A DNA stretch of 64,000 nt from a bacterium (GCA_021785655.1 JAJYET010000004.1:8907-72906), one strand, 5' to 3'; positions 30,292 through 51,309 are shown, counted from the first letter of the stretch. Numbers and translations are program-made. Notes: generated by a model not told the origin, from the letters alone.

Positions 30292-30368
30292 GGGCGCATA
30301 GCTCAGGTGGTTAGAGCGCTACCCTGACACGGTAGAGGCCCCAGGTTCGACTCCTGGTGCGCCCACCA
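30292..30368 (+). tRNA. tRNA-Val (anticodon GAC), CCA encoded; integration target
   Basis: GGGCGCATAGCTCAGGTGGTTAGAGCGCTACCCTGACACGGTAGAGGCCCCAGGTTCGACTCCTGGTGCGCCCACCA; anticodon loop CTGACAC. Confidence 0.9.
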
Positions 30369-30408: not shown

Positions 30409-30437
30409 TTGACAGAAAGTGCAGGGAGTGCTAATCT
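30409..30437 (+). promoter_or_regulatory. sigma70-like promoter upstream of integrase (TTGACA-17-TAATCT)
   Basis: TTGACA at 30409, 17-nt spacer, TAATCT at 30432. Confidence 0.4.
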
Positions 30438-30526
30438 GGCCCAAATATTGACATGGGTACCGCTCTGGAGCAGAGGCTTTGACTTGAAAGCGGCTGCAGG
30501 CAGAGCGGACCTTGAAGGAGCCTCCG

Positions 30527-31480: not shown

Positions 31481-31594
31481 CGGCAGGGTGCTCTCCTGAC
31501 CCCCGGTCCGCCGTCCCGAGCGCCCCGGGACCGTCACCCTGCGTGGGAGCCACGGCAGGACGGGTCAAGGCACGCCGCATCCCGGTCGGATCCC

Positions 31595-31843: not shown

Positions 31844-33065
31844 GGCCGGTCCAGCCCAGTGGGCTCGAACCCCGAGTTTCGAGGCTCAGTTCCTTTCCCG
31901 GCACTTCCCGTGTCGAGTAGACCCCGGCCAGCGGCCGTGGAGGCGGCCACCTCCATCCTCTGGCGGCCCTTGCGGTCGACGGTCTCGCTGAAGGTCGCAC
32001 CCCGCCGCTCCAGATAGTCGTAGACCCCGCGCACGGTGCGCCCCAGCGCGGCGCCGAGGCCGTGAGCGGCGCCCATCGCGGGCAGTCTGGAGACGCAGCC
32101 GACCAGCCCCCGGATGATCAGCAGCTCGTCCGTGGAGCGGACCAGGTCCCGCACCAGCGGAGACGCGGGCGAACCGATCTCCGCCTCCCGGATCACCTGC
32201 CACTCCCGGGCCCCCGGCCAGCGGGAACGGTGGGAGTCCGAGGTCGGAACCTCGAGCGAGACCCACTGGGTCGTGCAGCGCCACAGCTCCCGGCGCGCCT
32301 CCAGCGCCTCGGCCGGAGAGGAGTCTCCCAGTGACACCAGGGAGCGGCGGCGGAACTGGAACTCCACCCGCCAGACCGGCTGCTCCCGGTCCCAACCCTT
32401 CCAGATCGCCTTTGGCCACTCCCCTCCCCACCCCCTGAGCTCCAGGGTCTTGACGTAGCAGCGGGCCATCACGGCAACGCCACCGAAGACGAAGCCGCTC
32501 GGTCGGCGGCCCCGGAGATGGGCCCGTGCATAGATCGGCACCATGCAGGTGCGGCGGCGGACCGCGCGGCAGTGGAAGTGTCGAAGTCTTCGACAGCCGG
32601 AAACCAGCCCTGGGTGTCGCGGTACAGGTCCAGTCGCGAGATCCCGGGGAGAGGCTCATCTCGCATCACGTTTGCGGCCAGCCGCTCCGAGATTTCAGCC
32701 ACGGCGTCATCCACCCCCTGGGAGTGGAGGGAGGCGGAGTGGGTCTGGATGAAGACCGGCGGGAAGGGGGACGGCGCCCCGATCGCCACCTCCATGTTGG
32801 GAGAGCTGGCCCAGAACGGATAGCTCCGCCAGCCGTGGGGGTGCAGGGCTACCGAGAGGCACTGCTCGCCCCAGGGGACCACCTGGAACTCGTTGGTGCG
32901 CTGAGACTCCTCCTTGAGCGCCTCGAGGAAGACCAGCAGACCGTCCTGCAGCTCCCCACGGACGGAGCAGGGGAGCGTGTCCACCCCGGCGGCCGGAATC
33001 CTCAGGTCTGCCGCCACGATCGATCCGAGAGCCCGTCTGAGGTGGAGTGTGTATTTTCCCACCAC
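31840..33065 (-). pseudogene. replication initiator protein, RepSA-like (putative HUH/rolling-circle type), split across two frames
   Basis: N-terminal frame 32469..33065 (..LHPHGW..) and C-terminal frame 31840..32544 (..CYVKTLELRGWGGEW..WRVEFQF..YDYLERRG); frame change in overlap ~32470-32545. Confidence 0.4.
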
Positions 33066-34377
33066 TGTGTGACAGGCACTCGTGGTGGGAGAGGGCCTTG
33101 CCGCTCCACCTGGCGAGGGGCATCTGGTGGCTCCCCTCCAGGGAGCATTCCACCGCCTGGAACTCCTCCAGGGTCTCCTCCCGCCAGATGGCCCGCGGGG
33201 AATGGGGCGGGAGGAGAGCGGCCCTGTCGCTGTCCAGGCAGATGTGGCTGTTCACGGCGGCCCGGACCCGGAAGGCGACCGCGCCCTGGAGATGGGCCTT
33301 CAGCTGCCCCGGCATCGCCTCGGCATCCTGGCGCTGGGTGCAGCAGACGAGGTGGACCCCCACCGACCGCCCCAGCCTGGCGACCTCCCCGAGCCGCCCG
33401 CTGGCCGCCTGCTGGGCGGCGCGGTCGGCCCGGTCGTCGCCCAGGTCGAGACAGGTCAGCTCCGCCACCTCGTCCACCGCGACCGGCAGCCGGGGCCAGC
33501 TCGGCGGGGAAGCCGGTCTCTCCGAGGAAGCAGCCTCCCGCACCTCCCGGAGCCGCCGGTCCACCTCCTGCCGGACCCGCCCCAGAGTGTCGGCCGCCGC
33601 CAGGAGGCCGTCCGCCAGGGGGTAGATGGCGTGAGGTAGGCCCCTGAAAGGGGCGAGCTCCACCCCACCTTCGAGGTCGATGACGGCCACCTGGAGGTCC
33701 TCCGGTTCGTGCTCCCGGCAGAGGACGGTGAGCACCTGCCGTAGGAAGACAGGCTTGCCCCCTCCGGTCATCCCGCCCGCCAAGAGGTGGGGGCGGGCGT
33801 TCAGGTCCACCCAGAAGGATCCCCGGCGCCCTCTGCCGAGGCCGATGAGGAACCTCTCCGGCGGCCGGGGCGAGCTGTACATCTCCCGGTACGCGAGGTG
33901 GTACGGGATGCGGTGCCGCAGCACCTCGGTCACCAGGCCCCCGCGCTCCTCACACACCCGCAGCGAACACTCACTGCGGGCCTCCAGGGGCTCCTGCCGC
34001 TGCGGGACGTCCCACAGGGTGACCACGGGCGGCACCCGCCAACGCAGGGTCACGGTGCGCCGCTGCCACCTCGCGTTTGGCCGCGCTCCCGGCGCCACCA
34101 CCCGGCCCCTCCGGTCCACACCCACAACGCCGCACTCCACCATCGCCCGGCGCAGTCTGGCCGCCGGGGACCTGCCCCTCCCGTCGACCGTGAGAAGCGC
34201 TGCGGCCGAGGCCGCGATGAGGGTCCCGCACGATGAGGCACCTTCGCCCCAGTGCAGTTCGGATGCCGCGACCGGGTCGGCCACCAGTACCCAGTCGGCC
34301 GGCTGCCCGAGGAGCCACGTCCCGACGGCCCCGGGATCCGATAGGGCCCTGGGGTCGGCCAGGTACCTGCCGCCCAT
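32707..34377 (-). CDS. traB: FtsK/SpoIIIE-family DNA translocase TraB/TraSA-like; 3' end uncertain
   Basis: Walker A GMTGGGKPVF, Walker B-like VAVDEVAEL, ..HLVCCTQR; ATG 34377 overlaps stop of upstream small ORF (TGATG); recognisable domain ends near 33120, remainder low-complexity read-through. Confidence 0.65.
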   Translation of the reverse strand: MGGRYLADPRALSDPGAVGTWLLGQPADWVLVADPVAASELHWGEGASSCGTLIAASAAALLTVDGRGRSPAARLRRAMVECGVVGVDRRGRVVAPGARPNARWQRRTVTLRWRVPPVVTLWDVPQRQEPLEARSECSLRVCEERGGLVTEVLRHRIPYHLAYREMYSSPRPPERFLIGLGRGRRGSFWVDLNARPHLLAGGMTGGGKPVFLRQVLTVLCREHEPEDLQVAVIDLEGGVELAPFRGLPHAIYPLADGLLAAADTLGRVRQEVDRRLREVREAASSERPASPPSWPRLPVAVDEVAELTCLDLGDDRADRAAQQAASGRLGEVARLGRSVGVHLVCCTQRQDAEAMPGQLKAHLQGAVAFRVRAAVNSHICLDSDRAALLPPHSPRAIWREETLEEFQAVECSLEGSHQMPLARWSGKALSHHECLSHSGGKIHTPPQTGSRIDRGGRPEDSGRRGGHAPLLRPWGAAGRSAGLPRGAQGGVSAHQRVPGGPLGRAVPLGSPAPPRLAELSVLGQLSQHGGGDRGAVPLPAGLHPDPLRLPPLPGGG

Positions 34378-34622
34378 CAGAACGAGGAGGCCGCCGGGGC
34401 CGGATGTGAAGCACGCAGCGGCGGGCTCGGGCTCCCCTCCGCGATGAAGCCCGAGATCAGCCAGATGGCGAGGAGCAGCGCCAGCAGGACCCAGCAGCCG
34501 ATGCGTCCCCCCGGGGTACCCCGGAGGAGGGAGCGGAGGACCGCCAGCACGACCATGACGCTGAACAGGACGGCGGCCGCCACCACCACGAAGGTGAGGA
34601 TCGCCCCCAGGACGCCGGTCAC
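34377..34622 (-). CDS. small two-TM membrane protein (Spd-like spread protein candidate)
   Basis: 81 aa, two hydrophobic helices; translationally coupled between the SSB-like ORF and traB. Confidence 0.35.
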   Translation of the reverse strand: MTGVLGAILTFVVVAAAVLFSVMVVLAVLRSLLRGTPGGRIGCWVLLALLLAIWLISGFIAEGSPSPPLRASHPAPAASSF

Positions 34623-34985
34623 TTCCGGGCCCTTGCCTGGGTCTCAGTGGCACCCTCCTTCCGGAGAGGCGAGAGGTACGTGATGTGGTCCGCCACCACT
34701 ACCAGGCGAAGCTGGCCTCCCCCCTCCGTGCCTTCCGGGTTGTAGAAGATGCCGCGGAGCCGGCCGGTCACCGCGACCCTTGAGCCCTTGCCAATAAAGC
34801 GCACCCGGTTCCTCGCCTGGCCCCCCGGGCCTCGACCCGACCCAGTCCGGCTCCTGGGTGCGGTCCCGCCGACACACCGCGCAGAGGGCGCTCTCCTTCA
34901 CCTGCGGGTCCGGCTCCCCTGCCGTGAGGAACTCCTGGACCCGAACCTCAGAGGCGACCACCCCGATCAGCTCGACGTGGGTCAT
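34619..34985 (-). pseudogene. small SSB-like OB-fold protein split over two frames
   Basis: frame A MTHVELIGVVASEVRV..ALCAVCRR; frame B ..GSRVAVTGRLRGIFYNPEGTEGGGQLRLVVVADHITYL resembles SSB L45/beta strands; frame change ~34800. Confidence 0.35.
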
Positions 34986-36254: not shown

Positions 36255-37412
36255 CTAGTGGTCCGGCGGCCAAATAGGTGAAGCCCATAAGCTGGCAGTA
36301 TGAAGATGATGCCAGCGGCGGAACCTTTGCCGGTGACCAGGGAAGACCGGGCGGCGTTGGAGAGGCTCGCGAAGTCGACTTCGCGGAGTCACCGAGCGGT
36401 GCTGCAAGCGCGAGGACTGCTGTTGGCTAGCGAAGGGGTGGCCAACTACGAGATCGCTCGGCGCGTGGGCGTGTGCTCCAACACAGTCCGGAGTTGGCGG
36501 CGGAGCTTTCCACAACGGGGTGTGGCGGGGGTGGGAGTGATTCGCCCCGGTCGGGGCCGCAAGCCGTGGCTGCCCGAGGGGACGGTGGCGGAGGTGGTGC
36601 GATTGACGCAGCAAGAACTGCCGGCTGATGGCTCCACCCACTGGACCACTCGGAGCTTGGCCCGACGAGTGGGGATCGGCAAGGACAGTGTGGGGCAGAT
36701 CTGGAAGGACCACGACCTCAAGCCGTGGAAGGTGGAGACCTTCAAGATCTCCAATGATCCTGCCTTCGAAGAGAAGCTGGTGGACGTGGTGGGGCTGTAC
36801 CTGAACCCGCCCGAGCGCGCTGTGGTGTTCAGCGTCGACGAGAAGACCCAGTGCCAAGCCCTGGACCGGACCCAGCCAGGACTGCCCATGCGGCCGGGCC
36901 GAGCGGGAACCATGACCCACGACTACAAGCGCAACGGCACCACCGACCTGTATGCGGCCCTCAACATCGCCACCGGGCAAATGCTGACCGACTGTCGGGA
37001 TCGACACACCGCCAAGGACTTCGTGCGCTTCCTGCGGATCATTGACCGCAACGTGCCGGTCCAGTTGGACGTGCACCTGGTCTTGGACAACCTCTCCGCG
37101 CACAAAGCCCCCGAGGTGCAGGCCTGGTTGGCACATCCGCAGCGACGTCGCTTTCACCTCCACTTCACGCCGACCAGCTCCAGCTGGGTCAATCTGGTCG
37201 AGCGCTGGTTCAAAGAGCTGACCGACAAACGCCCGCGGCGCGGCACCTTCAGCAACGTGCCCGCCCTCATCGACGCCATCAAACTCTGGGTGTCCCACTG
37301 GAACGACAACCCCCAGCCTTTTGTATGGCACACACCCGCGGACGAGATCATCGCCAAGGTCCGCAGGGGCCGCGCTGCACTAGCCCAACTTAATTCACCG
37401 ACGGACCACTAG
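36255..37412 (+). mobile_element. IS630-family insertion sequence, copy 1
   Basis: imperfect terminal inverted repeats CTAGTGGTCCGGCGG.. / ..CCGACGGACCACTAG; TA target duplication; single transposase ORF filling element. Confidence 0.75.
36300..37412 (+). CDS. IS630-family DDE transposase
   Basis: 370 aa; N-terminal HTH, DDE core (..VFSVDEKTQCQALDR.., ..VHLVLDNLSAHK.., ..YSSWVNLVERWF). Confidence 0.85.
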   Translation: MKMMPAAEPLPVTREDRAALERLAKSTSRSHRAVLQARGLLLASEGVANYEIARRVGVCSNTVRSWRRSFPQRGVAGVGVIRPGRGRKPWLPEGTVAEVVRLTQQELPADGSTHWTTRSLARRVGIGKDSVGQIWKDHDLKPWKVETFKISNDPAFEEKLVDVVGLYLNPPERAVVFSVDEKTQCQALDRTQPGLPMRPGRAGTMTHDYKRNGTTDLYAALNIATGQMLTDCRDRHTAKDFVRFLRIIDRNVPVQLDVHLVLDNLSAHKAPEVQAWLAHPQRRRFHLHFTPTSSSWVNLVERWFKELTDKRPRRGTFSNVPALIDAIKLWVSHWNDNPQPFVWHTPADEIIAKVRRGRAALAQLNSPTDH

Positions 37413-39937
37413 AGCCTGGGGTCGACCGGCTCGCTCTCCAGTGCGAGGATTCCGAAGACGCACTCGTGAACCCGGTGCAGGCCTTCTGATCGGACGAACC
37501 TCTCTAAGGCCTCGATCCCCAGGGCAAACTCGCGAACCGCCAGCGAGCGCTTGAGCCCGAGCGAGCGTTCCCGGAGCCGGCTGAGGTTGGCGGGCAGCGT
37601 GTACTCGGGACCGTAGATGATGCGGAGGTACTCCGGTCCGCGGCACTTGACGGCGGGCTGGAGCAGCCCTCGGCGGCCCGTCGCCACAAAGGGCAGGGGT
37701 TTCACCACCATGCCCTCTGCGCCCCTCTGAACCAGGTCCTCCCACCAGCGGATCGCGGTCCGCTCGCTGACCGGGTCGGTGAGGTCAACCGAGGCGTGGG
37801 CAGTGGCGACGATGACGGAATCGGCGTCCGACGCCAGGCGGGCCAGGGTGGCCATGTGCCACACATGGTCTCGATCTGCATGCACCACCGCCCCGCTGGC
37901 GAGGAGGTGGAACGGAGCGATCCGCAGATCGTCGACGGACTTCACGTCCCAGCAGTAGCGGCGATAGGCATCCCGGTACCCGCTAATGAGCCGGGCTCTG
38001 GCCTGGGTGCGATCGGCCAAGTCGCCGACGTCGACTCCGCGCGCACGCGCAGCGTCGAGGGCTGGCAGCGCCGCCGCGAACGCCTGCTCCGCGGCCGAAG
38101 CTACTGCGGAGTACTGGCTGACCAAGAGCTCTCCTGCCTTGACCGACCAGGGCATCACCTCCATGTCGAGGGCAGCCCAGTCGCTAGCGAGCTCGTCCCA
38201 GAGGCCGGCCCGGTCCAGAGCGTTGCGCAGCCGCTCTAGAACAGCCGCCTCAAAGGCGCGGTCGGCGAAGAACCTCCGGCCGGTCCGTGTGTACACGATC
38301 CCCCCCGCGTCACTGGCGATGTGAAACCGGCGCTCGATCGCGCCCGGATCACGGCCCGCGATGGCGACGGCGCGCGACCCCATGTGCTTCTCTTGGCACA
38401 CAACCTGTTCCACCCCGCCGCGACGGAAATAGTCAAAGGCCTCGGCGGGGTGCTCGAGCAGGCCCTCGTTCGCGGTCGTTGCCGGGGGAGACATGGTGGG
38501 CGGCAGATAGACGATCCAGCGAGGATCGACGGCGAAGCGGCTCACGGCCTCGAGGGCAGCAGCGGCGTTCTCGTCGGGGATCGTGACGTTGCCCACGAGG
38601 CGCGTGGTGATCGTCCGCCGTCCCAGGACGTCCGCGGCGTACAGGGCTAGGCTGTCACGCTCGCTGGGAGCCTGAGCAGCCGACAGCGGCCGGGTGGGCT
38701 GGTAGTACATGCGCGCGGCGGGTACCTCGACGAGCTCCCGCTCGGGGTAACGTAGGGCGGTGAGCCGACCGCCAAAGACGCAGCCCGTGTCGATGCAGAT
38801 CGTGTTGTTCAGCCACTCGGCAGCGGGTACGGGCGTATGACCGTAGACCACCATGGCGGCACCACGGTAGTCGGCGGCCCAGTTGTAGCGAACGGGAAGC
38901 CCGAACTCATCGGTCTCCCCGGTCGTCTCCCCATAGAGGGCGAATTCCCGAACCCGGCGGGAGGCGCGTCCCTGGAGCCTCTCGGCCATCCCAGCGTGAG
39001 CGACCACCAGCCGTCCGTCATCAAGAACCAAGTGGCTTACCAGCGTGTCGATGAAGGAGGCGACCTCCTGGCGGAACTCGAACGGCTCGGCTTCTAGCTG
39101 CGCCAGCGATTCGGCCAGGCCGTGGCTCACCGTCACTTGCCGCCCTTGGAGGGCGCGCATCAGCTTGATGTCGTGATTGCCGGGGACGCAGAGTGCGCTG
39201 CCGGTCCGAGTCATGGCCATAACGGTGCGGAGGACCCCGGGGGTCGAGGGGCCGCGATCGACCAGGTCGCCGAGGAAGATGACCTTCCGTCCCTCCGGAT
39301 GGCTGTACCCGCCGTCGGCCGGCTGATAGCCGAGACGGCCGAGGAGGGCGACCAGCTCCTCATGGCAGCCATGGACGTCCCCGATCACATCGAATGGCCC
39401 GTGCCAGTCGCGGCGGTCGGTCCAGAGCCGCTGGCGCTCGACGACCGCGGCATCGACCTCCTCTTGGGAGCGGAGGATGGTCACATAACGGAAGCCCTCG
39501 CGCTGCAGATCCCGTGCCGACCGGTGGAGCTGGAAGATCTGGTTGCGGACCACGTGGGGCCCCAGATTCCGGTCCGGGCGCTCGCGCGAGCGCTGCTGAA
39601 GAACCGACTCCTGGAGATCGAAGACGATCGCCACCGCGAGTACGTCGTTGTCACGAGCGAGCTCGACCAGCGGACGGCGCGCTTCCTTCTGGACGTTGGT
39701 CGCGTCGATGACCGCGAGGCGCCTTAGACCGAGCCTCGCCGAGGCGACGGCGTGCATCACCGCGAAGGCCGGCTGGTTGACGTCGAGGGCATTCTCGTCG
39801 TCGGCCACCATGGCCCTGCAGGCGTCGGAGGAGATAACCTCGGTGGGGAGGAAGTGCTTGCGGGCGAAGCTGGACTTGCCCGAGGAGGTCGCGCCGACCA
39901 GTACCACGAGGGAGAGCTCAGGGATGGTGATGGTCAT
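37409..39937 (-). CDS. pnkp: polynucleotide kinase-phosphatase Pnkp (kinase/phosphatase/ligase)
   Basis: P-loop GATSSGKSS, calcineurin-like GDVHGC..GNHD phosphoesterase, C-terminal adenylyltransferase/ligase domain; 842 aa; 4-nt overlap with hen1. Confidence 0.85.
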   Translation of the reverse strand: MTITIPELSLVVLVGATSSGKSSFARKHFLPTEVISSDACRAMVADDENALDVNQPAFAVMHAVASARLGLRRLAVIDATNVQKEARRPLVELARDNDVLAVAIVFDLQESVLQQRSRERPDRNLGPHVVRNQIFQLHRSARDLQREGFRYVTILRSQEEVDAAVVERQRLWTDRRDWHGPFDVIGDVHGCHEELVALLGRLGYQPADGGYSHPEGRKVIFLGDLVDRGPSTPGVLRTVMAMTRTGSALCVPGNHDIKLMRALQGRQVTVSHGLAESLAQLEAEPFEFRQEVASFIDTLVSHLVLDDGRLVVAHAGMAERLQGRASRRVREFALYGETTGETDEFGLPVRYNWAADYRGAAMVVYGHTPVPAAEWLNNTICIDTGCVFGGRLTALRYPERELVEVPAARMYYQPTRPLSAAQAPSERDSLALYAADVLGRRTITTRLVGNVTIPDENAAAALEAVSRFAVDPRWIVYLPPTMSPPATTANEGLLEHPAEAFDYFRRGGVEQVVCQEKHMGSRAVAIAGRDPGAIERRFHIASDAGGIVYTRTGRRFFADRAFEAAVLERLRNALDRAGLWDELASDWAALDMEVMPWSVKAGELLVSQYSAVASAAEQAFAAALPALDAARARGVDVGDLADRTQARARLISGYRDAYRRYCWDVKSVDDLRIAPFHLLASGAVVHADRDHVWHMATLARLASDADSVIVATAHASVDLTDPVSERTAIRWWEDLVQRGAEGMVVKPLPFVATGRRGLLQPAVKCRGPEYLRIIYGPEYTLPANLSRLRERSLGLKRSLAVREFALGIEALERFVRSEGLHRVHECVFGILALESEPVDPRL

Positions 39938-41382
39938 CGCTGGAAGACGGCCATCTGGGTAGGGGGCCCGAGTCGATCGTCAGCGTCACCGATGGGACGG
40001 AACGACACCGAGTATCCAAAGCGGGACGCAGCCGATTCGGCCCAGGCGTGGAACTCGGAGCGGGTCCACTCGAATCGGTGGTCCGGATGACGAGTTCGCC
40101 GGGGTCCGAGGGTCGGGAACAGCTGGTTGTATTCCGCGTTCGGGGTGGTCACGACCACGGTGGATGGTCGAGCGTGGCCCAGCACCGAGGCGCTGAAGGC
40201 TTCCAGGCGATCTAGATCCAGGTGCTCGATGACCTCGACCGCCACGGCGGCATCCCAGCCCGTGAGCCGTTCGTCGCGGTAGGTGAGCGAGCCGTGCACG
40301 AGCGAGAGGCGCTCGCGCTGGCGTGGGGCCAGGGAGTTGAGGTGGAGCTTCCGTGCCGCCCTTTCCAGGGCTCGCACCGAGACGTCCACACCGAGGATGC
40401 GGGTGAACCTCGGGTCGGCAAGGAGCAGTTCGATGAGGTGCCCCTCGCCGCAGCCGAGATCAGCGACCGTGGACGCACCCGCTTGGCGGATCGTCTCGAC
40501 CACGGCCTGGAGCCGTTGCTGGTTGAGGTTCAATGGGCGCTCCAGTCCCGCCTCGAGAGCGTCGCCCCGATTGACCCGCGCCTCCGGGTCGATGTCGTCC
40601 TCCTCGGTGAGACGACGCAGCGCCTCCCGGGTGAGGCCGCGCTGGTCGCGCAGGTACCGCCTCACAATCAGCTCGCGTTCCGGGTGCGTCCCCAGCCACT
40701 CCCCCGCTCGTTGCAGGAGCTTGTCCACCTCGGCGTCTCCCACCCAGTAGTGCTTCTCGCCGTCGAGGGCTGGGATGAGGACGGTGAGATGAGTGAGTAG
40801 ATCCGCGAGCCGGAGCGTGCCACGGAGCGTCGTTCGGTGGTACCGGGATAGGCCCCAGGCTGGGAAGCTGCTGTCGAGGAGCTCAGAAGCAACGTCGACC
40901 GTATACCCGAGCGGCTCGAAGAGCCGGTGCACTAGGTCCTTGCCTCCCTCCGACGGCAGTGCGGCGATGGTCGCCTCTAGGGGGATGGCCTGAGCCGCGA
41001 GCTCCGGCCGGTCGGTCGAGCGCCCGCTCCGGGCCGACGCGAACGCCTTGCCGAGTGCCACCGAGAGGAGGGACGTCGCGGCGTACGGGCGGTCGTTGAC
41101 GTAGTGGTCCACCCCGCCGGCTGCCGGGGTCCGCGACCCACGGCCTCGCCGCCGCACCAGGTCGATCGGGTCGATCTCGAGGAGGAGGGCGACGGTGCAG
41201 CGCTCGGCGGTCGCCTCCGGGTAGAAGACGTGGGCCACTCCGCCGAACACGTCGAACGTGTTGACGCGAGCTGGGTTCTTGTGGAGCAGGAATCCGAGAT
41301 CGGTGGCCGGCAGGTGGGTCGTGGTAACGGTCAAGAACATGAGGCCCGAAGTCTCGCATACCGAGCGGGGCCGTCTGGCCAC
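39934..41382 (-). CDS. hen1: 3'-terminal RNA ribose 2'-O-methyltransferase Hen1
   Basis: 482 aa; SAM-binding motif VADLGCGEG, ..VEVIEHLD..; N-terminal Hen1-specific domain; operon partner of pnkp. Confidence 0.85.
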   Translation of the reverse strand: MARRPRSVCETSGLMFLTVTTTHLPATDLGFLLHKNPARVNTFDVFGGVAHVFYPEATAERCTVALLLEIDPIDLVRRRGRGSRTPAAGGVDHYVNDRPYAATSLLSVALGKAFASARSGRSTDRPELAAQAIPLEATIAALPSEGGKDLVHRLFEPLGYTVDVASELLDSSFPAWGLSRYHRTTLRGTLRLADLLTHLTVLIPALDGEKHYWVGDAEVDKLLQRAGEWLGTHPERELIVRRYLRDQRGLTREALRRLTEEDDIDPEARVNRGDALEAGLERPLNLNQQRLQAVVETIRQAGASTVADLGCGEGHLIELLLADPRFTRILGVDVSVRALERAARKLHLNSLAPRQRERLSLVHGSLTYRDERLTGWDAAVAVEVIEHLDLDRLEAFSASVLGHARPSTVVVTTPNAEYNQLFPTLGPRRTRHPDHRFEWTRSEFHAWAESAASRFGYSVSFRPIGDADDRLGPPTQMAVFQR

Positions 41383-41665
41383 AAAGGGCTGGGAACGGCC
41401 TGAGCACCGTTGCCCCAGGGACGACTACCGGAAGACCGCGGCGGTGACACCTTGCCTGACACCTTCCCGTCCCGCACGAGACGAGTTTTCGCCTGTCAAC
41501 GGCCATCCGAGGTCGGCCGGAACTCAGCACCGTCGGGGTCGCGGAATCCAACCTCGGACGACTCGGACGCCCCTGGCACCCACGGACACCGACCGAGGCA
41601 ATTTGCGGACCCGCCTCTTCGCTTCCGTTGATCCGGGGTGGGGTAAGCCTCAGCCCGATCTGATG

Positions 41666-42754
41666 CTAGTGTCCTGCTTCCGAAGTAGCTACGCAAGAGC
41701 GAGCGATGCTGGCGAGGATCTGGTCGGCGGTCTTGACCCAGGTGAAGGGCTTGGGGTGCTCGTTGTTGGCCTTGAGGTAGACGCGGATTGCGTCCTCCAG
41801 AGCGCGCACGCTCTGGTGTGAACCCCGTCGGACCTGGCGCTCCGTGAGCAGTCCGAACCAGCGCTCCACCTGGTTGATCCAGGACGAATAGGTCGGGGTG
41901 AAGTGCAGCTGAAACCGGGGATGGAGCAACAGCCAACGATGGACCGAACGAGTCTTGTGGGTGCCGTAGTTGTCGAGTACCAGATGAACGCCGAGGTCGG
42001 CGGGGACCTCGGCGTCGATGCGCTGCAGAAAGCTGAGGAACTCGGTACTGCGATGGCGCCGGTGAAGGTCGCCGATCACCCTGCCGGTGCCGATGTCCAG
42101 GGCGGCGAACAAGGTGGTGGTCCCGTGGCGGTGGTAGTCATGGGTCTGGCGCTCGGGGAGCCCGGGCCGCATGGGCAGCAGCGGCTGGGTACGGTCCAGC
42201 GCCTGAATCTGGCTCTTCTCGTCGACGCAGAGGACCAGCGCCGCCTCCGGGGGGTGCAGGTACAGGCCCACGATGTCCCGCACCTTCTCCACCAGCTGCG
42301 GATCGTTGGAGAGCTTGAAGCTCTCGCTGCGGTGCGGCTGCAGACCGAAGGCATGCCAGATGCGCAGCACGCTGGTGTCGCTCAGCCCACTGGCTTCGGC
42401 CATACTCCTGGTGGTCCAGTCGGTGGCGTTGGCCGGCTTGGTCTCCAGAGTTCGCACCACCACCTGCTCCACCTGCTCGTCGGTGATTCGCCGAGGGGCC
42501 CCACACCGGGGCTCGTCCAGAAGACCCGCCAGCCCCCGGCCGATGTACCGCTTTCGCCACTTCCCCACCGTGGCAGCGCTCACCCGCAGCTGGGCCGCCA
42601 CATCCCGGTTGCTGACCCCGTCGGCGCAGCGCAGTACGATGTCCGCCCGGCGCGCCAGCCCGTTTGAGGTGGTCCTGCGCCGCCGCCACCGCAGGAGATG
42701 CTCCCGGTCCTCCGGGCTGACCAGCAGGTCGGGTTTGGGACGGCCACGGAGCAT
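41666..42754 (-). CDS. IS630-family DDE transposase
   Basis: 362 aa; same architecture and conserved blocks as 36300..37412. Confidence 0.85.
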
Positions 42755-44638: not shown

Positions 44639-45627
44639 ACGTTGTCAGACCGGTGAGGACCTGGAAAGGTCGCCGCCGAGGGCACCTTCGGAGAGCTTGC
44701 GTGGTCATAGCGGGGGCGCTGTGGCTCCTCCTAGCCTCTCCCGTACCGGAGTCATTGAGCGGGTGGGGGATAGCTGTGGTGCTCACGATTGTCGCCATCG
44801 TCCTGGCCCTGGGGGCTGGCACCGGATGGATTGCCTTCCAGCGAGCAGATCGAGTCGATGAGTTCAGTCGGGAGCTGCGAGATCGTGCCTACCGGCTCGC
44901 GTTCAGGTTCTTCGTGTTGGGAGTGCTCCTCCTGGCTCTTGCGTGGTTCGTGAGCCAAGTGCTCCATGGGCAGATCACTTGGGCGGTCCCCGACCCGGTA
45001 GGCGCCAGACGCATGGCGGCGCTACTGGTTCTGTTGGCCACGCTGCCGACTGCGATGACGGTCTGGATGGCTCCCGCTGCAGGGGATGACCCCCGGGCTG
45101 CGGGCTCGCCAGCGCGGGCCGGCCGACTCACTTGGCGTTGGCTGCCCTTGATTTCCGTCCCAGCGCTGTTCACGGTGTGGTTGTCCGGCGTGGCCCTCAT
45201 GCCGGTAAGTGGGGCGACCCTGGTCACCCTGCCAGATCCCGGGTTCGCTATGACAAATGGACATTGCGGTGCATTCGCGGCCACGCAGCAGGTGGCGCGC
45301 GGCTTTGGCCCGACAGTCCGACTCCTCGCCCAGGTGTGCTGGAATGGTCGGGAAGCGTGGGTGATCAACGACCCCGGAGCGCCGACACCTCGCTACTTCG
45401 GACCTTTGTCGTCAGGCGTGGAGCCGACCCTCTGTTCTCCCGCCAACGACGGTACCGACTTCGGAGTGGTCAGGCGAGTGGGCTGCCGAGTGTGGATCAA
45501 TGGGGCGGGAACTGTCCACGTGCGCCTTAGGGCCCAGGCGGGGTCTGGTCTGCTGAGCATCGGGCGGAAATGGATCCAGATCACCTTGGTGGTGACCAGG
45601 AGCGGTCGAGTTCTGATATTTACGTGA
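44635..45627 (+). CDS. polytopic membrane protein, paralogue B
   Basis: shares DEFSRELRDRAYRLAF loop motif, CWNGREAW and terminal ..TRSGRVLIFT with paralogue A; probable GTG start 44635 overlapping stop of paralogue A (GTGA). Confidence 0.5.
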   Translation: MNVVRPVRTWKGRRRGHLRRACVVIAGALWLLLASPVPESLSGWGIAVVLTIVAIVLALGAGTGWIAFQRADRVDEFSRELRDRAYRLAFRFFVLGVLLLALAWFVSQVLHGQITWAVPDPVGARRMAALLVLLATLPTAMTVWMAPAAGDDPRAAGSPARAGRLTWRWLPLISVPALFTVWLSGVALMPVSGATLVTLPDPGFAMTNGHCGAFAATQQVARGFGPTVRLLAQVCWNGREAWVINDPGAPTPRYFGPLSSGVEPTLCSPANDGTDFGVVRRVGCRVWINGAGTVHVRLRAQAGSGLLSIGRKWIQITLVVTRSGRVLIFT

Positions 45628-45829
45628 GAGGACGGCCTGGGCACTGAAGCCCGGAAGTCGATGTCCCCCAACGTGGCTTGGTGCCGCAGCTTGGCCGCCT
45701 TGAGCCGGGTCGCCAGCCGCCGGCTCTCCCCCCAGCTCATCTCCCGGTCCTCAGGCAGCCCGATGCAGTCCTCGAAGGGCAGCTCCAGGCCCTGGGTCTG
45801 CTCCAGCTGCTCCCGCAGCGCCGGAACGG

Positions 45830-46100
45830 CTGCTGTTGGCGAATCGAGCTCGCGCGCCGTGCCTGGGGCCAGGCCGAGCTATCGCGTGCTGCTCGTCTCC
45901 GAGCCCCGGCTGTGCGAGTCGGCTCTCTCGGGCGGGCCGATCGCTCCCAGGACGCTCCGGAAGATAGCCATGGCGCTGGCGACGGCTCCAACGCTGGCCG
46001 CTCTCGATTCGATCCTTCCGCCAGTGCGTGGAGTGGCGAAGGACCGCGACGGCGCCAGGCCGGAGGTTCGTCCCACTTTGATTCCGTACCGGCGTCCAGC
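45830..46100 (+). pseudogene. frameshifted remnant of an XRE-like regulator gene (paralogue of 31595..31843)
   Basis: ..WRIELARRAWGQAELSRAARL.. in one frame and ..TLRKIAMALATAPTLAALDSILPP.. in another; compare LRFEIARRGWNNVDLARAAG / TLRKIAVALAAAPPVSGVDEILPA. Confidence 0.35.
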
Positions 46101-46344
46101 GCTCTCAGTCGCCGATACTCGAAGCTGCCCGCAGAACTGACGCTCGCTCCTGATCGTGTACAGCGTCATCAAGGCATAGCTCTCCAGCAACGGCTTCGGG
46201 GGGCGGGGGGCGCCCAACTGCGCCTACAGTTCTTGAAGGGACAGTTCCAGTTGCCAAGGTGCCGCCTCTGCCAGCGGCTTCATTCTGCGGATCGGGTAGT
46301 TCGCCGGAATCACCGCAGTCGGGCGTTCAAGCGGGTAGCGCTAT

Positions 46345-46356
46345 CCCCCCCCCCCC
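46345..46356 (+). repeat. homopolymeric C12 tract abutting transposon inverted repeat
   Basis: cccccccccccc directly followed by tggag and the left IR. Confidence 0.8.
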
Positions 46357-46409
46357 CTGGAGTCAAACTTGGGTAATAATAGACTTGACGCACGCCGGAT
46401 AGGGGTGCC

Positions 46410-47375
46410 ATGATCTCCACGGCATGGGAAGTTGGCGGCGTGATGGGACGGCTGAGCCGGGTGGTACACCCGTGGTCGAGCCGTGAGCGACTGTTCGCCA
46501 TGCTTGAACTGACCGCCTTTTCGGACGAGAGCTACACGGAGCACGAGGTTTATTGCGTCGCGGGCTACTGGGCAAGCGCGCGTGCATGGTCCCACTTTGA
46601 TGACCAGTGGAAACAAGAACTAGCGCGTTGCGGCCTCTCGGAGTTCCACGCGGAAGACTGTGAGCAAGGCCATGGAGAATATGCCAATAGGAAGGACCGC
46701 GCGAAGCTACGCGCAAGATTCACCAAGATTGTGAACGCCAATATGCTTCACGGGGTTTTCGCTTGCATTGACCTTCGTGGCTGGGACGACATTGCCGACG
46801 AAGTTGCCTACCTGCGTCCCGACGCGAGAGATCCGTTCTACATCCCCTTCCAGATGTTCCTGGAAGGCGCTACTAAAGAGGTTGACTGCTTTGCCCCCAA
46901 CGAACGCCTCGCGGTAGTCTTCGACGACCGCGAGGGTGCTGGCAAAGTGGTTGAGCTTTACAACTCGCTTAGGCGCGATGCGGACCCGGCCTTCAAAGTT
47001 TTGAACGCTCGTCTCGGGAGTGCGGTGTCTGGGGCGTCTAGTGAATATGCCGGTCTCCAGGCCGCCGATCTCCTGGCGTATGAGGCGCGACTCTATGTAA
47101 GCGGTCCAATCTGGGGAGTGCGCGGGTCCGAGCGGCGCCCAGCGTGGGAGCCGTTGTCTTCTAAGCTTCGCCACGGCAGCGTGATTACTCGCGAGCAGAT
47201 GCCGGCCCTAGCCCGGCAAATGCGCGTGAAGGGCGGCGAGGGTGCTATGCGTCGGGCGGCTGTTCTGGCGGCTCGGAAGGCCGACCGCGATGCCCATGGG
47301 GCCGTCTATCGCGCTCGTACTTCTCCCGCTGCTCCGCAATCTCCTGAGCCGGGACGGCCAGAAGAGACCGCATAA
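46410..47375 (+). CDS. DUF3800-family protein (cargo gene; C-terminal tail possibly read-through)
   Basis: FSDESYTEH (DES motif) and EYAGLQAADLLAYE (QxxD motif); low-GC codon usage (ttt, aaa, gaa). Confidence 0.55.
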   Translation: MISTAWEVGGVMGRLSRVVHPWSSRERLFAMLELTAFSDESYTEHEVYCVAGYWASARAWSHFDDQWKQELARCGLSEFHAEDCEQGHGEYANRKDRAKLRARFTKIVNANMLHGVFACIDLRGWDDIADEVAYLRPDARDPFYIPFQMFLEGATKEVDCFAPNERLAVVFDDREGAGKVVELYNSLRRDADPAFKVLNARLGSAVSGASSEYAGLQAADLLAYEARLYVSGPIWGVRGSERRPAWEPLSSKLRHGSVITREQMPALARQMRVKGGEGAMRRAAVLAARKADRDAHGAVYRARTSPAAPQSPEPGRPEETA

Positions 47376-47422
47376 AACGGTCGAGGGGTGTCTGCGCCCG
47401 CTTGCTCTCATCGGTCATTGCC

Positions 47423-47528
47423 AGCACCTACGATAGCGGGTCCATCCAAACGGTGACATCAGGAAGGGGATTGCCAGCACCTACGATAGCGGGTCCATCC
47501 AAACGGTGACATCAGGAAGGGGATTGCC
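47423..47528 (+). repeat. perfect tandem duplication, 2 x 53 bp
   Basis: agcacctacgatagcgggtccatccaaacggtgacatcaggaaggggattgcc twice; ends 3 nt before ATG 47532. Confidence 0.9.
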
Positions 47529-47771
47529 TAAATGCATTCGAACGAATCGGCAGGACTTGCACACGGCCATAGCGATCGACATGTCAGCGCGGACGGCATT
47601 CCCCTCCGCCCCCCGCTCAGCACGGACGAAGACCGGCTCGAGGACAAAGTGCCAATCGTCGACCCCGCATATCGGGCACTCTTGTCGTCCGAGGCGTTTG
47701 TCAAGGCCGTCGAAGAAATCTGCGACCGTCGGTGGTTCCGCCGGGGCCCCCTCGTCCCGTTCTGATGTCAT
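47481..47771 (-). CDS. hypothetical zinc-ribbon protein downstream of IS1595 transposase (alternative: plus-strand ORF 47532..47765)
   Basis: 96 aa; CPICG ... CKSC; 33-nt gap after transposase stop, same strand; C-terminal codons lie in the tandem repeat. Confidence 0.3.
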   Translation of the reverse strand: MTSERDEGAPAEPPTVADFFDGLDKRLGRQECPICGVDDWHFVLEPVFVRAERGAEGNAVRADMSIAMAVCKSCRFVRMHLGNPLPDVTVWMDPLS

Positions 47772-47804
47772 GCCTAAGCCCTCCTGCCGCGCCCCTGCCG
47801 CTTC

Positions 47805-48758
47805 TTAGCAGGGGATGACTGTTTGGCCGGTCAGGTCACGATAGGTCAGCCGCCTACCCGAGACCTGACCGAGCACCTTCTCGAACCGCTCGCCGTCGCC
47901 TTCCTCGCGGGTGTTGAACCGTAGCGCCTGCTCATCGAGGTACCGGAACAGGTGAAAGGGCTCCACGCTGACGTAGGTACCGCGAAGCGACCGCTTCAAC
48001 AGGCTCCAGAAGTTCTCGATCCCGTTGGTGTGAACATTCCCCTCGACGTAGGTCACCGCATGGTTGATGACTTGGTGAACATAGTCGGAGTCAAGATCGG
48101 CGTATGAGGCAAGTGCATCGGTGAACACCTGAACCCCCGCCGATACGTTAGCCCGGACCTCGGGGGCCAAGGTCTTCCGGCGAACGTTCTCAACCACCTT
48201 GGCGCGGACTACACTGTGACGTTCGGGGCTGGTGCGCTCCAGCAGGCCCATCACGGCGGCCTTGCCGACACTACCCCGCCCCAGGTGCTTGCGCTTCGCC
48301 TCGTGCTGGAACCTGGCCTTGCCTCCGATGAAAGTCTCGTCAACCTCAACCTGGCCGCTCATCTTCTCGAAACTGTTGGTCCTCATGGCCAGCCGAATCC
48401 GGTGGAGCATGAACCAAGCGGACTTCTGGGAGACGCCGAGCGAGCGGTGGAGTTCGTAGGAGCTGATCCCGTTCCTGGCGCTAGTGATTAGCCAGATGGC
48501 GGGGAGCCACTTGTCGAACCCAAGTGGCGAGTCCTCAAAGATGGTCCCAATCTTGATCGAGAACTGCTGCCGGGGGTGCTTGGCCTTGCAACGCCAGACG
48601 CGGCGGGTAGCGATGAAGTGAACCTCGTGGCTCCCGCAAGTCGGGCAGGTGACCTTGCCATCCGGCCACCGCTGCGCGATGAGGTACTCAAGGCAGCGAT
48701 CCGGGTCAGAGAAGTAGCGGACCGCCTCGAGCAGGGTCTTGATTTCGGGCTTTGCCAT
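47805..48758 (-). CDS. IS1595-family transposase (zinc-ribbon + DDE_Tnp_IS1595)
   Basis: N-terminal CPTCGS..WRCKAK zinc ribbon; DDE core; 317 aa. Confidence 0.85.
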   Translation of the reverse strand: MAKPEIKTLLEAVRYFSDPDRCLEYLIAQRWPDGKVTCPTCGSHEVHFIATRRVWRCKAKHPRQQFSIKIGTIFEDSPLGFDKWLPAIWLITSARNGISSYELHRSLGVSQKSAWFMLHRIRLAMRTNSFEKMSGQVEVDETFIGGKARFQHEAKRKHLGRGSVGKAAVMGLLERTSPERHSVVRAKVVENVRRKTLAPEVRANVSAGVQVFTDALASYADLDSDYVHQVINHAVTYVEGNVHTNGIENFWSLLKRSLRGTYVSVEPFHLFRYLDEQALRFNTREEGDGERFEKVLGQVSGRRLTYRDLTGQTVIPC

Positions 48759-48901
48759 GCCTCAGAGTATAGCACATCTTGTGAGTGAAGTCTATTATTG
48801 CCCAAACTTGGGCTGGGCGGGCCCAAAGTAATCGGAGGGTATTGCCTTGGCGGCAGGTTTCGACCTCCACCAACCGGGACTGTGAGGTTATCGCCCGACA
48901 A

Positions 48902-49099
48902 TCACTCCCACTGCATGGAGTCGGCCGCTGGCCTATGCCTACCGCTTCTAGTCGTGAGCGTGCGCCCCAGCCACGGGGGCCCGAAGCGCAAGTGCCCCAG
49001 GCTGTCGATCTTCATAACGAAATCCGTCTGGCCCTCGGTCACAGCCCGCTGCAGCCTATCGTAGAACTCCAGTTTGAACTCATCGATGACTTCAGCCAC
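48902..49099 (-). CDS. N-terminal gene fragment (MAEVIDEFKLEFYDRLQRAVTEGQTDFV..), possibly disrupted by the transposon
   Basis: 65-aa ORF with lower GC immediately outside right IR. Confidence 0.2.
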   Translation of the reverse strand: MAEVIDEFKLEFYDRLQRAVTEGQTDFVMKIDSLGHLRFGPPWLGRTLTTRSGRHRPAADSMQWE

Positions 49100-49838
49100 G
49101 CCCTATCCTCCAGCGGAACCCGCAGTCATGGACCAGCTTGGAGTCTATGCGGTCTGCCCGGTCCACCTACCTTCCGGCCTTCTTCGCCGCGGCTCGGCTA
49201 CCATGACACGGAGCCGCCCCGCCACTCGCCTCTCTCGATTCGACGCTTCCGACGGCTCGTAACCAACGACCGGCACGGCACCAGTCCGGAGGTTCGTCCG
49301 GATTTCACCGCGCATCTGCGTCCAGGGTCCTCAGCCGCGACTGATCCATCGGCTCCCGGGGCTCTTCCCGAACGGCAGGCGTCCGACCCCTGGGAGCCTG
49401 GCGGCAACGGGAACCCTCCGTAGCCTCTGGCTCGGCAACCGAGTGGCAACTCCGAAGGCCAAGTACCTTCCGCATTCCCTGCGAGCGGCGCCCGGGCGCC
49501 ACCGGTAGGTTCGCTCCCAAGATTGCGCCCGGGCGACGGCAGCGCATCCCTGACCGGGTCACACCCTCTTTACTTTGGGTCCTTTGCCCTGGCGAAAGTA
49601 ACCCGGGTCCGATCCGCGACCTCCACCCTTGCCCGCAAGCCAACGTCGACGAATACTCTCCGGGGCCAGCCCCCCCGGCGCCGCGGGGGTCATGGCTGGA
49701 GGTAGCCGCACTCGTGGCTAACGCCCTGTCAGGCGCGCCTAGCCCCCGCATGGGTAGCGCTCTTTAGAAGCGCATCTGTGGAATACTCCTTTGCACTTAC
49801 AGTCAGAACGCACACTTGTGCGACGTCTCGGTAGAGGC

Positions 49839-49892
49839 CTACCCTGACACGGTAGAGGCCCCAGGTTCGACTCCTGGTGCGCCCACCAGCCT
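49839..49892 (+). repeat. attR core (54 bp copy of tRNA-Val 3' part)
   Basis: identical to 30319..30372. Confidence 0.85.
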
Positions 49893-51309
49893 GCCGCGCC
49901 GGTCCATCCGCCGCGGGAGCGGTTGCTGGGTTGGGCTTCATTTGGGGAGCCAGCCCGGAGCCTAACGCACACTCGTCATCACCCGCCCCCTGCGGGATGA
50001 GAGCAGGGGAATGAACAGCCATCCCAACGCGTACCCCAAGTCAGACCTGAACCAGTCGATAGGCTCGGCGCGGGCTGGCGGGAGGGCTGGGGGATGCGGC
50101 GCACGCACCAATTGGGCGCGGTCGCGGGCATGGCTGCCGGTCACAGATGGTGTTCTGGAGGGCCCGGAACAGGTGTGGAGGGGCCGCCGAGGGCGCCATG
50201 GACCCCAGGTAGCCGCGGGGGCGGTCGTGGCGGGTGGCGGGTGCCCTACCCGGTCCGGTCCACGCGAAGGTGGGCCGGGGCCAAGAACTCCTCCTTGTGG
50301 AACATTCCGGAGGCCAGCCGCAGGCGTAGCCGCCGTCGACCCCGAACCAGCCTGGCCGGCCGAAAGCGGCCAGCGGCGCAGCCTCTGGGTGTTGTGGGGC
50401 TGGCCCACGGCCGCGAGCTGCTCACGGGTGAGGATGCCCCGCCAGCGGCCTCGGCCTCGTGCCGCCCCCGGCAGACGTTGCCCGCCGCGAGCACGTAGGT
50501 CGGTGGCGGTCACGGCCACCGTGGCCACCATGTCCCCCGGCTGCCCCAAGCAGGCGGTCTGGCCCACGCCTCGGGATCCGCACCTCGAAATCTCGCACCG
50601 ATCCTCATCAGACCCCGATGTGCGGGGGATGGGGTCTTGACACCGCCCGGTCGGATCGCCGGGACCTCACCTTCCTCACCGCAGGTGTGCCTTCGCGCCC
50701 TTCCCAGACCAGGTCAGTGGATCCTAGGCGCCGCCTTCGCGCTCCACTGCTGGCGCCGCTCGCCATGGGTGAGTTCGATCACAAGCCGCTGCACCGCCTC
50801 CCTGGCCTCGGTGAGCCGGGCAGGCTGGGGTCGTCCGCGGAGAGCGCCGTGGCTGCCAGGGTTTCCAGCCGGCGCCGGACGGATCGGGCATCGCGGAGCA
50901 GGGCGACTCGGGCCTCGGTTCTGCCCGAAAAGGGGACAGAGCAACCGGATGCCCTCTCCACCACCTCGCCCTGCCGGTGCCGATGCACAGCGTTGCCGTC
51001 CTCAGCTCGACCTTTGTCCCTGGAGCGGCTTGCACCTGCTTTAGGAGGATGACCGCCATCTGCTACCCGACCGTGGTGCTACCCCCGAAGACGCTGGGGA
51101 ACGTCCCATCACCGAGGCTCCTCCCGGCAAGCCCCTCACGCTGCCGCGGGGAACTCCATTCGCGGGATGACAATTGCGCTCACCCCGTTTCTCCGGTGTC
51201 CGCTGCCCCTGGGCCCGGGCGTGGGCTACCGCCGGGCCAACTCACCGCCTTCGGTTCCAGGTGGAGAACACGCGGTTCGCCGAGGGGATTGTGCTACCGT
51301 GTGGACACC

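Follow-up and report, generated by a model that had tools for sequence, protein, structure and literature searches.

This study describes a small element in a window of 64,000 nucleotides (nt) of bacterial DNA (GCA_021785655.1, JAJYET010000004.1:8907-72906), in which all positions are counted from the first letter of the stretch. At 46372-48802, between imperfect terminal inverted repeats, lie a gene for a protein with a DUF3800 domain, a convergent gene for an IS1595-family transposase, an open reading frame (ORF) of 96 amino acids (aa) with two cysteine pairs, here called zn96, and a small gene, here called orfS, that is antisense to the end of the DUF3800 gene. With a probability of roughly 0.8 this 2,431-bp unit is a complete and probably still mobile transporter insertion sequence (IS) of the IS1595 family, that is, one with passenger genes inside its inverted repeats. 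A preliminary description, made from the sequence of the window, had recognized most of these parts and had overlooked two, orfS and a 53-bp tandem duplication (Table 1).

Results

Ends of the element

Alignment of both ends with each other and with those of relatives sets the length of the element, which starts GGTAATAATAGACTT... at 46372 and finishes ...AAGTCTATTATTGCC at 48802. The left and right terminal inverted repeats (IRL and IRR) match at 19 of 22 positions, and the core TTGGGYAATAATAGACTT occurs in the 64-kb window only at the two arms, with 0 occurrences expected from 100 shuffles. A repeat finder reported inverted arms at 46364-46393 and 48781-48810, and the preliminary description had given repeats of about 25 bp enclosing a unit of about 2.45 kb; the repeats are real, but their outer 8 nt are CAAACTTG, which lies in direct rather than inverted orientation outside both ends, so that the true repeats are 22 nt long. 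This perfect 8-bp target duplication, which had been proposed as something to look for, is AT-rich and agrees with the loose consensus of relatives given below. As in other transporter IS, the genes that are carried (DUF3800, zn96 and orfS) all fall between the two ends, with a single duplication outside, and a perfect 8-bp duplication around the whole 2,431-bp unit shows that it went in as a single piece, DUF3800 gene included, through staggered target cuts 8 bp apart. The empty site across 46364/48810 would read …GGAGTCAAACTTGGGCTGGG….

The interior had been described as lower in GC than its host, which measurement bears out: GC is 60.8% in the element against 69.3% in the rest of the window, the lowest value among 308 sliding windows of 2,431 bp. 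A homopolymer of 12 C said to abut the left repeat is in fact a run of 13 C (46345-46357), 6 nt from the duplication and 14 nt from the element end; its length is constant in all metagenome contigs covering it, which gives no indication of phase variation. Disruption of a host gene by the insertion was considered and rejected, since the frames of the flanking ORFs fail to join across the element. Outside the IS, two diverged direct repeats of about 120 nt (45985-46112 and 49216-49338, 70-74% identical) flank it some 3.2 kb apart.

Transposase and expression signals

The transposase had been assigned to the IS1595 family, and profile matches agree: PF12762, the DDE domain, is matched over profile positions 2-153 of 153 (E=1.2e-37), PF12760, the N-terminal zinc ribbon, at residues 20-59 (E=6.5e-12; CPTCG at 38, WRCK at 55), and NF033547 of NCBIfam at 188 bits against a cut-off of 75. 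Motif inspection only, without alignment to characterised members, gives D140, D214, N245/E248/N249 and K255 as candidate catalytic residues. A consensus scan of 46300-48900 found two sigma-70-like sites where 0.6 were expected, one in each inverted repeat and both directed inward, and a scan for expression signals found no intrinsic terminator in the element. The IRR site ends 7 nt ahead of the transposase ATG, a spacing that suggests a leaderless or near-leaderless transposase mRNA.

Relatives that share the DUF3800 gene

Contigs carrying the exact proteins are metagenomic, have the same flanks as the window and are 100% identical to it apart from the 53-bp repeat. The DUF3800 homologues form a small, mostly metagenomic clade. 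Four independent clade relatives (DUF3800 46-57% identical to that of the window) lie inside repeats of one conserved type, each in another genome and with a perfect 8-bp duplication of its own. Among four homologues whose surroundings were inspected (52-57% identical), three of the genes are convergent to a complete IS1595 transposase gene (68-84% identical), while in the fourth (L020) only the last 35 transposase codons (80% identical) precede the contig end. The longest inverted repeat of the complete relatives encloses both genes and is of the type GGCAATAA[CT]A..CTTGACTCAC, each unit has a perfect 8-bp duplication of its own (CCAATTCC in L011, CTTTTTAG in L012 and L022, ATATAAGT in L016-19, a Dormibacterota metagenome-assembled genome or MAG), and the flanking genes of the L011, L012 and L016 elements are all different. 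The closest relative, L173, has a transposase 92% and a DUF3800 protein 70% identical to those of the window, in the same layout. It had been foreseen that the repeats might be missing from homologous copies, or that the DUF3800 gene might occupy the same site in the absence of the element; the repeats are conserved, with the consensus GGcAATaATAtACTTGACTcAc over 40 element ends, and no case of the latter was seen, homologous units lying in differing contexts with their own 8-bp duplications. Such units at different sites, 68-92% identical in the transposase, show that this type of unit has moved in the past, but not that the present copy is active now.

When one genome per species was scanned with a DUF3800 alignment, 71 loci emerged, mostly from Acidobacteriota and Dormibacterota MAGs (L022 repeats the L012 element), and an IS1595 transposase match was present in the flanks of 23 of the 70 distant DUF3800 loci (22-33% identical). 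Ends were located by a script that scored 22-nt terminal complementarity together with identity of the 8 nt outside. By this measure 19 of 24 distinct DUF3800 and transposase pairs, the window included, lie within repeats of the GG..AAT.ATATACTTGAC type with an 8/8 duplication, and 15 further distant pairs (DUF3800 22-30% identical) are inside the same repeats with their own 8-bp duplications; in three enclosed elements the two genes are tandem, not convergent. Applied to DUF3800 loci without a transposase as a negative control, the same script never gave a signal of repeats plus duplication. Of the 52 related elements whose ends were verified, 51 have a perfect (8/8) duplication and one, L132, a 7/8 match; the 51 duplications are 65% A+T with the loose consensus C-T/A-n-n-n-n-A/T-G. 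In L126/L127 the repeats are perfect (22/22) and the flanks agree only after a shift of one base (CCTAATTA / CTAATTAG).

Relatives that share the transposase

A reverse census started from the transposase and covered the 80 closest of more than 578 metagenome relatives (L093-L172, 56-79% identical). Ends could be verified in 31 of the 80, with element lengths of 1.8-5.7 kb, and none of these 31 complete elements is cargo-free, for which about 1.1 kb would be expected. A DUF3800 gene lies near the transposase in about 13 of the 80 by profile and in at least one more by Pfam. Cargo of sister elements includes AIPR, GmrSD_N with GmrSD_C, an N6_N4 methylase fused to Mrr_cat, another methylase, and PIN and NYN proteins, as well as SLFN_AlbA_2 with HATPase_c_4, Trypsin_2 (twice), an SDH/ClpP-like protease, DUF4145 and DUF7689. 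One apparent minimal element of 1.45 kb (L151) was discarded as a chimeric contig that ends in a Nextera adaptor beside a duplicated piece of an IS end. The transposase query returned from a plasmid collection only relatives less than 42% identical, named 'IS1595 family transposase' and uninformative on subgroup. The Methylobacterium oryzae plasmid pMOC1 (L182, 757-3114) has an annotated IS1595-family transposase with genes for a hypothetical protein and then a VapC toxin downstream of it on that strand, a layout that matches the 263-aa plus PIN cargo of L136.

Table 1. Features of the element and its borders, in window coordinates.
Feature	Position	Strand	Remarks
Target-site duplication, left copy	46364..46371	.	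CAAACTTG; same 8-mer just outside each element end
Terminal inverted repeat, left (IRL)	46372..46393	+	GGTAATAATAGACTTGACGCAC; 19/22 against IRR; fits family consensus GGcAATaATAtACTTGACTcAc
Sigma-70-like site in IRL, inward	46385..46414	+	TTGACG-18-CATGAT; consensus match only
DUF3800 gene	46410..47375	+	321 aa; predicted RNase HII/H2-like nuclease (PF12686; structure model); convergent with transposase
orfS	47245..47427	-	60 aa from GTG 47427 or 57 aa from ATG 47418; core FDRFMRSLLAVPAQEIAEQREKYER, then basic tail
Tandem duplication, 53 bp	47417..47522	.	perfect; copies 47417-47469 and 47470-47522
zn96	47481..47771	-	96-aa CPxCG...CxxC ORF; homologues in same slot and strand in L020 and L173
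IS1595-family DDE transposase	47805..48758	-	317 aa; PF12762, PF12760, NF033547; full length against relatives 68-92% identical
Sigma-70-like promoter in IRR, inward	48766..48794	-	TAGACT-17-TATACT; consensus match only
Terminal inverted repeat, right (IRR)	48781..48802	-	GGCAATAATAGACTTCACTCAC, read on minus strand
Target-site duplication, right copy	48803..48810	.	CAAACTTG

The DUF3800 protein

The convergent gene had been assigned to DUF3800 from its DES and QxxD motifs, an assignment that holds: the product matches PF12686 weakly but above the cut-off (24.0 bits, Pfam gathering threshold 21), and across 21 homologues the DES and LQAAD motifs (D39-E40, Q217-x-x-D220) vary little or not at all. 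All four of the acidic residues D39, E40, D172 and D220 are invariant or nearly so, which makes it plausible that the product is an active nuclease, and the structure model has an RNase HII/H2-like fold, with sequence identity to RNase HII/H2A of 10-13%, a disordered N-terminus and, toward the C-terminus, an additional long helix (residues 261-304). Although disordered in the model, residues 1-33 (MISxAWEIGGxxGRLSRVVHPWSS) are strongly conserved, and they form a clade-specific extension. A structured 5' leader in their place was considered and rejected, since variation, which includes CGN/AGG switches between arginine codons, is overwhelmingly at the third position; this pattern indicates that the 33 codons are translated and that the start codon is just 38 nt away from the tip of the element. 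The C-terminal tail (…RARTSPAAPQSPEPxPPEETS) is likewise conserved but disordered; the last ~43 codons overlap orfS antisense, and in this clade it is that gene on the opposite strand which accounts for the conservation of the tail. A profile of the clade found 10,409 representatives at E<=1e-3 in 1.84 billion proteins, 194 of them at E<=1e-30.

orfS

The orfS frame, on the transposase strand in the window, is open and conserved in 6 of 6 clade elements, where it encodes …FDRFM(K/R)SLLAVPAQEIAEQ(K/R)AKYERER and then a basic tail. Nucleotide conservation runs about 15 nt past the DUF3800 stop codon, the 27-codon core has 10, 8 and 17 variable sites at antisense-frame codon positions 1, 2 and 3, and synonymous and non-synonymous codon differences stand at 94:92 in the orfS frame against 41:127 in the DUF3800 frame; together these indicate that the antisense frame is the one selected. 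The profile motif (F-E/D-x-F…L/M-x-AVPKxE-I/L…KYE and a K/R-rich tail) was found in 75 fetched loci with cargo of every kind, and in 38 of the 52 elements with verified ends, mostly within ~100 nt of the transposase stop and on either strand; by the profile model used it is absent from the other 14. At least 1,183 protein clusters of about 50-60 aa match orfS; by far the larger part are unnamed or labelled 'hypothetical', a Pfam domain is present in none of them, and the window peptide itself gave no Pfam or NCBIfam match at E<=10. In the P0200 element orfS lies 10 nt downstream of DUF3800 in the same orientation. One orfS example is arranged DUF3800→orfS←transposase, and another has no transposase nearby. 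From these patterns we regard orfS as a real, unannotated gene associated with the backbone of the element.

zn96, the variable slot and the 53-bp duplication

The 96-aa ORF had been placed 33 nt after the transposase, and an ORF listing gives a start exactly 33 nt past the transposase stop. Its homologues in L020 and L173 are about 30% identical, with P33, C35, W40, C71, C74, F76, R78 and H80 invariant among the three. It is absent from most relatives, and the slot between transposase and orfS otherwise holds unrelated ORFs of 154 and 153 aa (L011, L016) or nothing (L012); L014/L015 have the same DUF3800 element and insertion site as L012, with an rve-type (integrase-core) IS nested in the variable slot 65 nt past the DUF3800 stop. 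The closest homologues, P0040 (64%) and P0041 (58%), sit outside any IS, so that zn96 is a genuine but optional passenger. The preliminary description was thus right to place DUF3800 and the zinc-ribbon ORF as passengers inside the repeats, but the cargo is no one-off, recurring in a multi-phylum IS1595 clade, and the zinc-ribbon slot is variable. No Pfam, NCBIfam or PADLOC match was obtained for zn96. A fold predicted from a three-sequence model (predicted local distance difference test score 63.7) was set aside, Foldseek matches reaching only E>0.2 (best an NrdR zinc ribbon) and being judged meaningless. P0040 is a stand-alone gene (L175-L180, 1-542) in which the first Cys is replaced by Ser, and the 190 nt upstream of it are 79% identical to window positions 50040-50227, which lie 1.2 kb outside the IS and past the end of the island described below.

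The 53-bp tandem duplication covers the last 14 codons of zn96 and the start of orfS and alters neither protein. It is polymorphic, with one copy in metagenome contigs that are otherwise 100% identical, and Logan short-read contigs break there; variation within the population is the probable explanation. In the single-copy variant the GTG of orfS directly follows the TAG of zn96; the extra copy in the window adds a frame of 21 codons whose TGA overlaps the ATG of orfS. A type III toxin-antitoxin system with a tandem-repeat RNA antitoxin was rejected because there are only two 53-bp copies, one in identical contigs, inside the coding sequence of zn96 and orfS.

The surrounding island

The element is enclosed in an island of about 19.5 kb that extends from a tRNA-Val gene (30292-30368) to a perfect direct copy, about 55 nt long, of its 3' part (~49839-49893), and that looks like a low-GC stretch rich in mobile elements integrated at tRNA-Val. 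No integrase domain was found in the ORF beside the tRNA (30431-31537, - strand). The island also holds an HTH gene, an FtsK/SpoIIIE-family protein (32707-34653, -) reminiscent of actinomycete integrative conjugative elements, and an RNA-repair pair, Pnkp (37409-39937, -) and Hen1 (39934-41382, -). The latter are flanked by inverted IS630-family (DDE_3) transposase genes at 36300-37412 (+) and 41666-42754 (-), with ~75% DNA identity, and the whole could be an old composite arrangement (36300-42754).

Discussion

The perfect duplication, the conserved ends and the recurrence of the same layout at other sites are what carry the reading of this unit as a complete transporter IS, but several points weigh against it or against parts of it. 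A search by exact protein found no second identical copy, and 7 of 7 contigs encoding the exact transposase share the window context; no empty site was found among these contigs, with no dedicated search made, so current activity is not shown. The suggestion that the unit moves intact is therefore supported by homologous units at different sites with their own duplications but not by a second identical copy. Only 38 nt separate the element tip from the DUF3800 ATG, and the -10 hexamer of the IRL site overlaps that ATG, which makes the role of this site uncertain and leaves transcription of the cargo unexplained. The DUF3800 match exceeds its Pfam threshold by only 3 bits. When DUF3800, zn96 and the transposase were scanned against PADLOC-DB v2, none of these three proteins matched a family at E<=1. 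A role in defence is guilt by association, and the literature searched held no experiment on a stand-alone DUF3800 protein. The census contigs are metagenomic and were picked by similarity, and the frequencies are rough.

That a plain IS1595 copy merely landed beside a resident DUF3800 gene, with a fortuitous left repeat, would accord with there being a single copy in this genome, but it has a negligible chance of being true and is refuted by the duplication outside both ends, by the census of enclosed pairs, which holds 18 independent DUF3800 and transposase elements of the same layout, and by the clean negative control; moreover the left end agrees with the conserved family consensus, and no chance matches were expected for the repeat core. 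If the unit is one element, DUF3800 could still be part of its machinery, an accessory transposition protein for, e.g., second-strand cutting or processing of an intermediate, which would make this a two-enzyme transposon. The DUF3800 gene and the transposase share one repeat pair across several phyla, DUF3800 and DDE transposases fall into one superfamily by fold, and the DUF3800 gene is present in every member of the window's clade. We nevertheless consider this very unlikely. Most of the closest transposase relatives are complete elements flanked by target duplications, with unrelated genes in place of DUF3800, some two thirds of the related DUF3800 genes lie outside any IS, IS-borne and free copies interleave in a rough distance tree, and the pairwise identities of transposase and DUF3800 are uncorrelated over 25 elements (Spearman about 0), DUF3800 being consistently ~52% identical only within the window's own clade (transposase at least 65%). 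The flat correlation may in part reflect saturation of DUF3800 identity near 25%, another caution to be set beside those above. From the swaps of cargo, the uncorrelated divergence, the interleaved tree and the profile census we infer that DUF3800 is interchangeable cargo, which a conserved backbone has repeatedly captured or swapped, and that it lies outside the transposition machinery.

Given the published contexts of DUF3800 and the presence, in the same slot of sister elements, of AIPR and GmrSD, which are recognised defence or abortive-infection genes, together with domains like those of restriction-modification systems, toxins and Schlafen proteins, defence or addiction is the best guess for what this cargo does. 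At a little below even odds, DUF3800 may be a stand-alone effector in defence, whether anti-phage or by abortive infection, that would cleave nucleic acid to the benefit of host or element. Alternatively, DUF3800 with zn96, orfS or both could form a module akin to toxin-antitoxin systems that stabilizes the element or island rather than defending against phage. The arrangement is compact, with convergent and overlapping genes, orfS is small, basic and always beside the 3' end of cargo or transposase, in the P0200 element it lies just downstream of DUF3800, and PIN- and NYN-type cargo occurs in sister elements; but most DUF3800 elements have no zn96, whose closest homologues stand alone, 14 of 52 have no detectable orfS, and orfS also accompanies unrelated cargos, methylases and GmrSD included, which argues that it is no DUF3800-specific partner, so an addiction module seems improbable, at perhaps one chance in several. 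More probably, though as a guess that we hold more loosely than that of a defence effector, orfS would be a backbone-associated regulator or a nucleic-acid-binding accessory of the IS. A partner for DUF3800 might also be a structured non-coding RNA, the ORFs between the two large genes being in reality an RNA gene. Eleven unrelated RNA motifs, with no fixed side or orientation, lie beside DUF3800 genes (Weinberg et al. 2017, PMC5737381), and there are 429 nt between the two large genes, the 53-bp tandem repeat included. Long odds stand against it: a search of 45500-49800 at E<=10 gave no Rfam covariance match to the DUF3800-associated motifs (DUF3800-I to XI, drum, skipping-rope), only two noise matches to unrelated families (E about 7, far below gathering scores), the gap in L012 is just 89 nt, the 53-bp repeat is single-copy in identical contigs, and conservation is at the protein level in both zn96 (invariant Cys, Trp and His) and orfS (synonymous excess).

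The IS1595 clade with interchangeable cargo is common in soil Acidobacteriota, Dormibacterota and neighbouring phyla. It is conceivable, if on balance doubtful, that the whole clade serves as a minimal vehicle for immunity or addiction modules of one gene each, with orfS as a new component of its backbone and DUF3800 as a one-gene anti-phage nuclease. The widespread but functionally uncharacterised RNase H-like domain DUF3800 is found near CRISPR effectors and retrons as well as eleven RNA motifs that lack an explanation, and the element gives it a clean, self-contained context, one gene on a 2.4-kb mobile unit that can be cloned directly for tests of function. More generally, very small transposons, not only large Tn7-like elements and islands, can spread defence-type genes between phyla, orfS represents an unannotated and very common family of ~55-aa proteins tied to these elements, and the inverted repeats with the duplication allow such elements to be delimited automatically in annotation.

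The kind of element is already known, and carriage of passengers by IS1595 is not categorically new: the transporter IS is a described class that was first defined in this family (Siguier et al. 2009 as cited in PMC3129680; PMC9330008). With its described members the present element shares a single DDE transposase with an N-terminal zinc ribbon, short repeats starting GG..AAT(A/T)AT, an 8-bp duplication, genes inside the repeats that do not serve transposition, and a size of 2.4 kb. It differs in that no described member was found with a DUF3800 passenger or a conserved ORF of ~55 aa, and the sampled clade in having no cargo-free member among its complete elements. Members of the ISNwi1 group of ISfinder have ends 'ggnnatTAT', 8-bp duplications and lengths of 1.75-4.75 kb with passengers. 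Besides the 8-bp duplication, the ends GGTAATAAT/GGCAATAAT come close to what we take to be the pattern of that group, as does GGCAATTAT in some relatives, and membership in this subgroup is presumptive. No paper in the literature searched links IS1595 with DUF3800, ISfinder being outside the search, and within that literature the recurrence of DUF3800 as a passenger of IS1595, the defence-like range of cargo and the conserved small ORF appear to be undescribed.

DUF3800 has an RNase H2-like fold (PMC7736814, PMC10910872) and is known as a companion of other systems: it is fused or adjacent to the reverse transcriptase (RT) in type VII retrons (PMC7736814), accompanies Cas12a2 (PMC10910872) and Cas12a3 (PMC13594972) as TPR-DUF3800, and occurs as Csx32 in Cas13-CASK kinase loci (bioRxiv 10.64898/2026.08.25.746378). 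The protein of the window has in common with these the Pfam domain, the N-terminal DE, the C-terminal QxxD and the fold, whereas it is an IS-borne, stand-alone protein that lacks any RT, Cas, TPR or kinase partner, its clade has the 33-aa N-terminal extension, and it is only 22-30% identical even to other IS-borne copies. With RNase HII/RNase H2A the resemblance is of fold only and not family membership, given the low identity, the extra helix and the disordered N-terminus noted above. Larger transposons, Tn7-like and others, ferry defence genes between the transposition module and the distal end. The IS1595 elements share with Tn7-like carriers exchangeable defence-type cargo on a conserved backbone, but they do so in about 1.8-5.7 kb, with a single transposase gene and usually one cargo gene.

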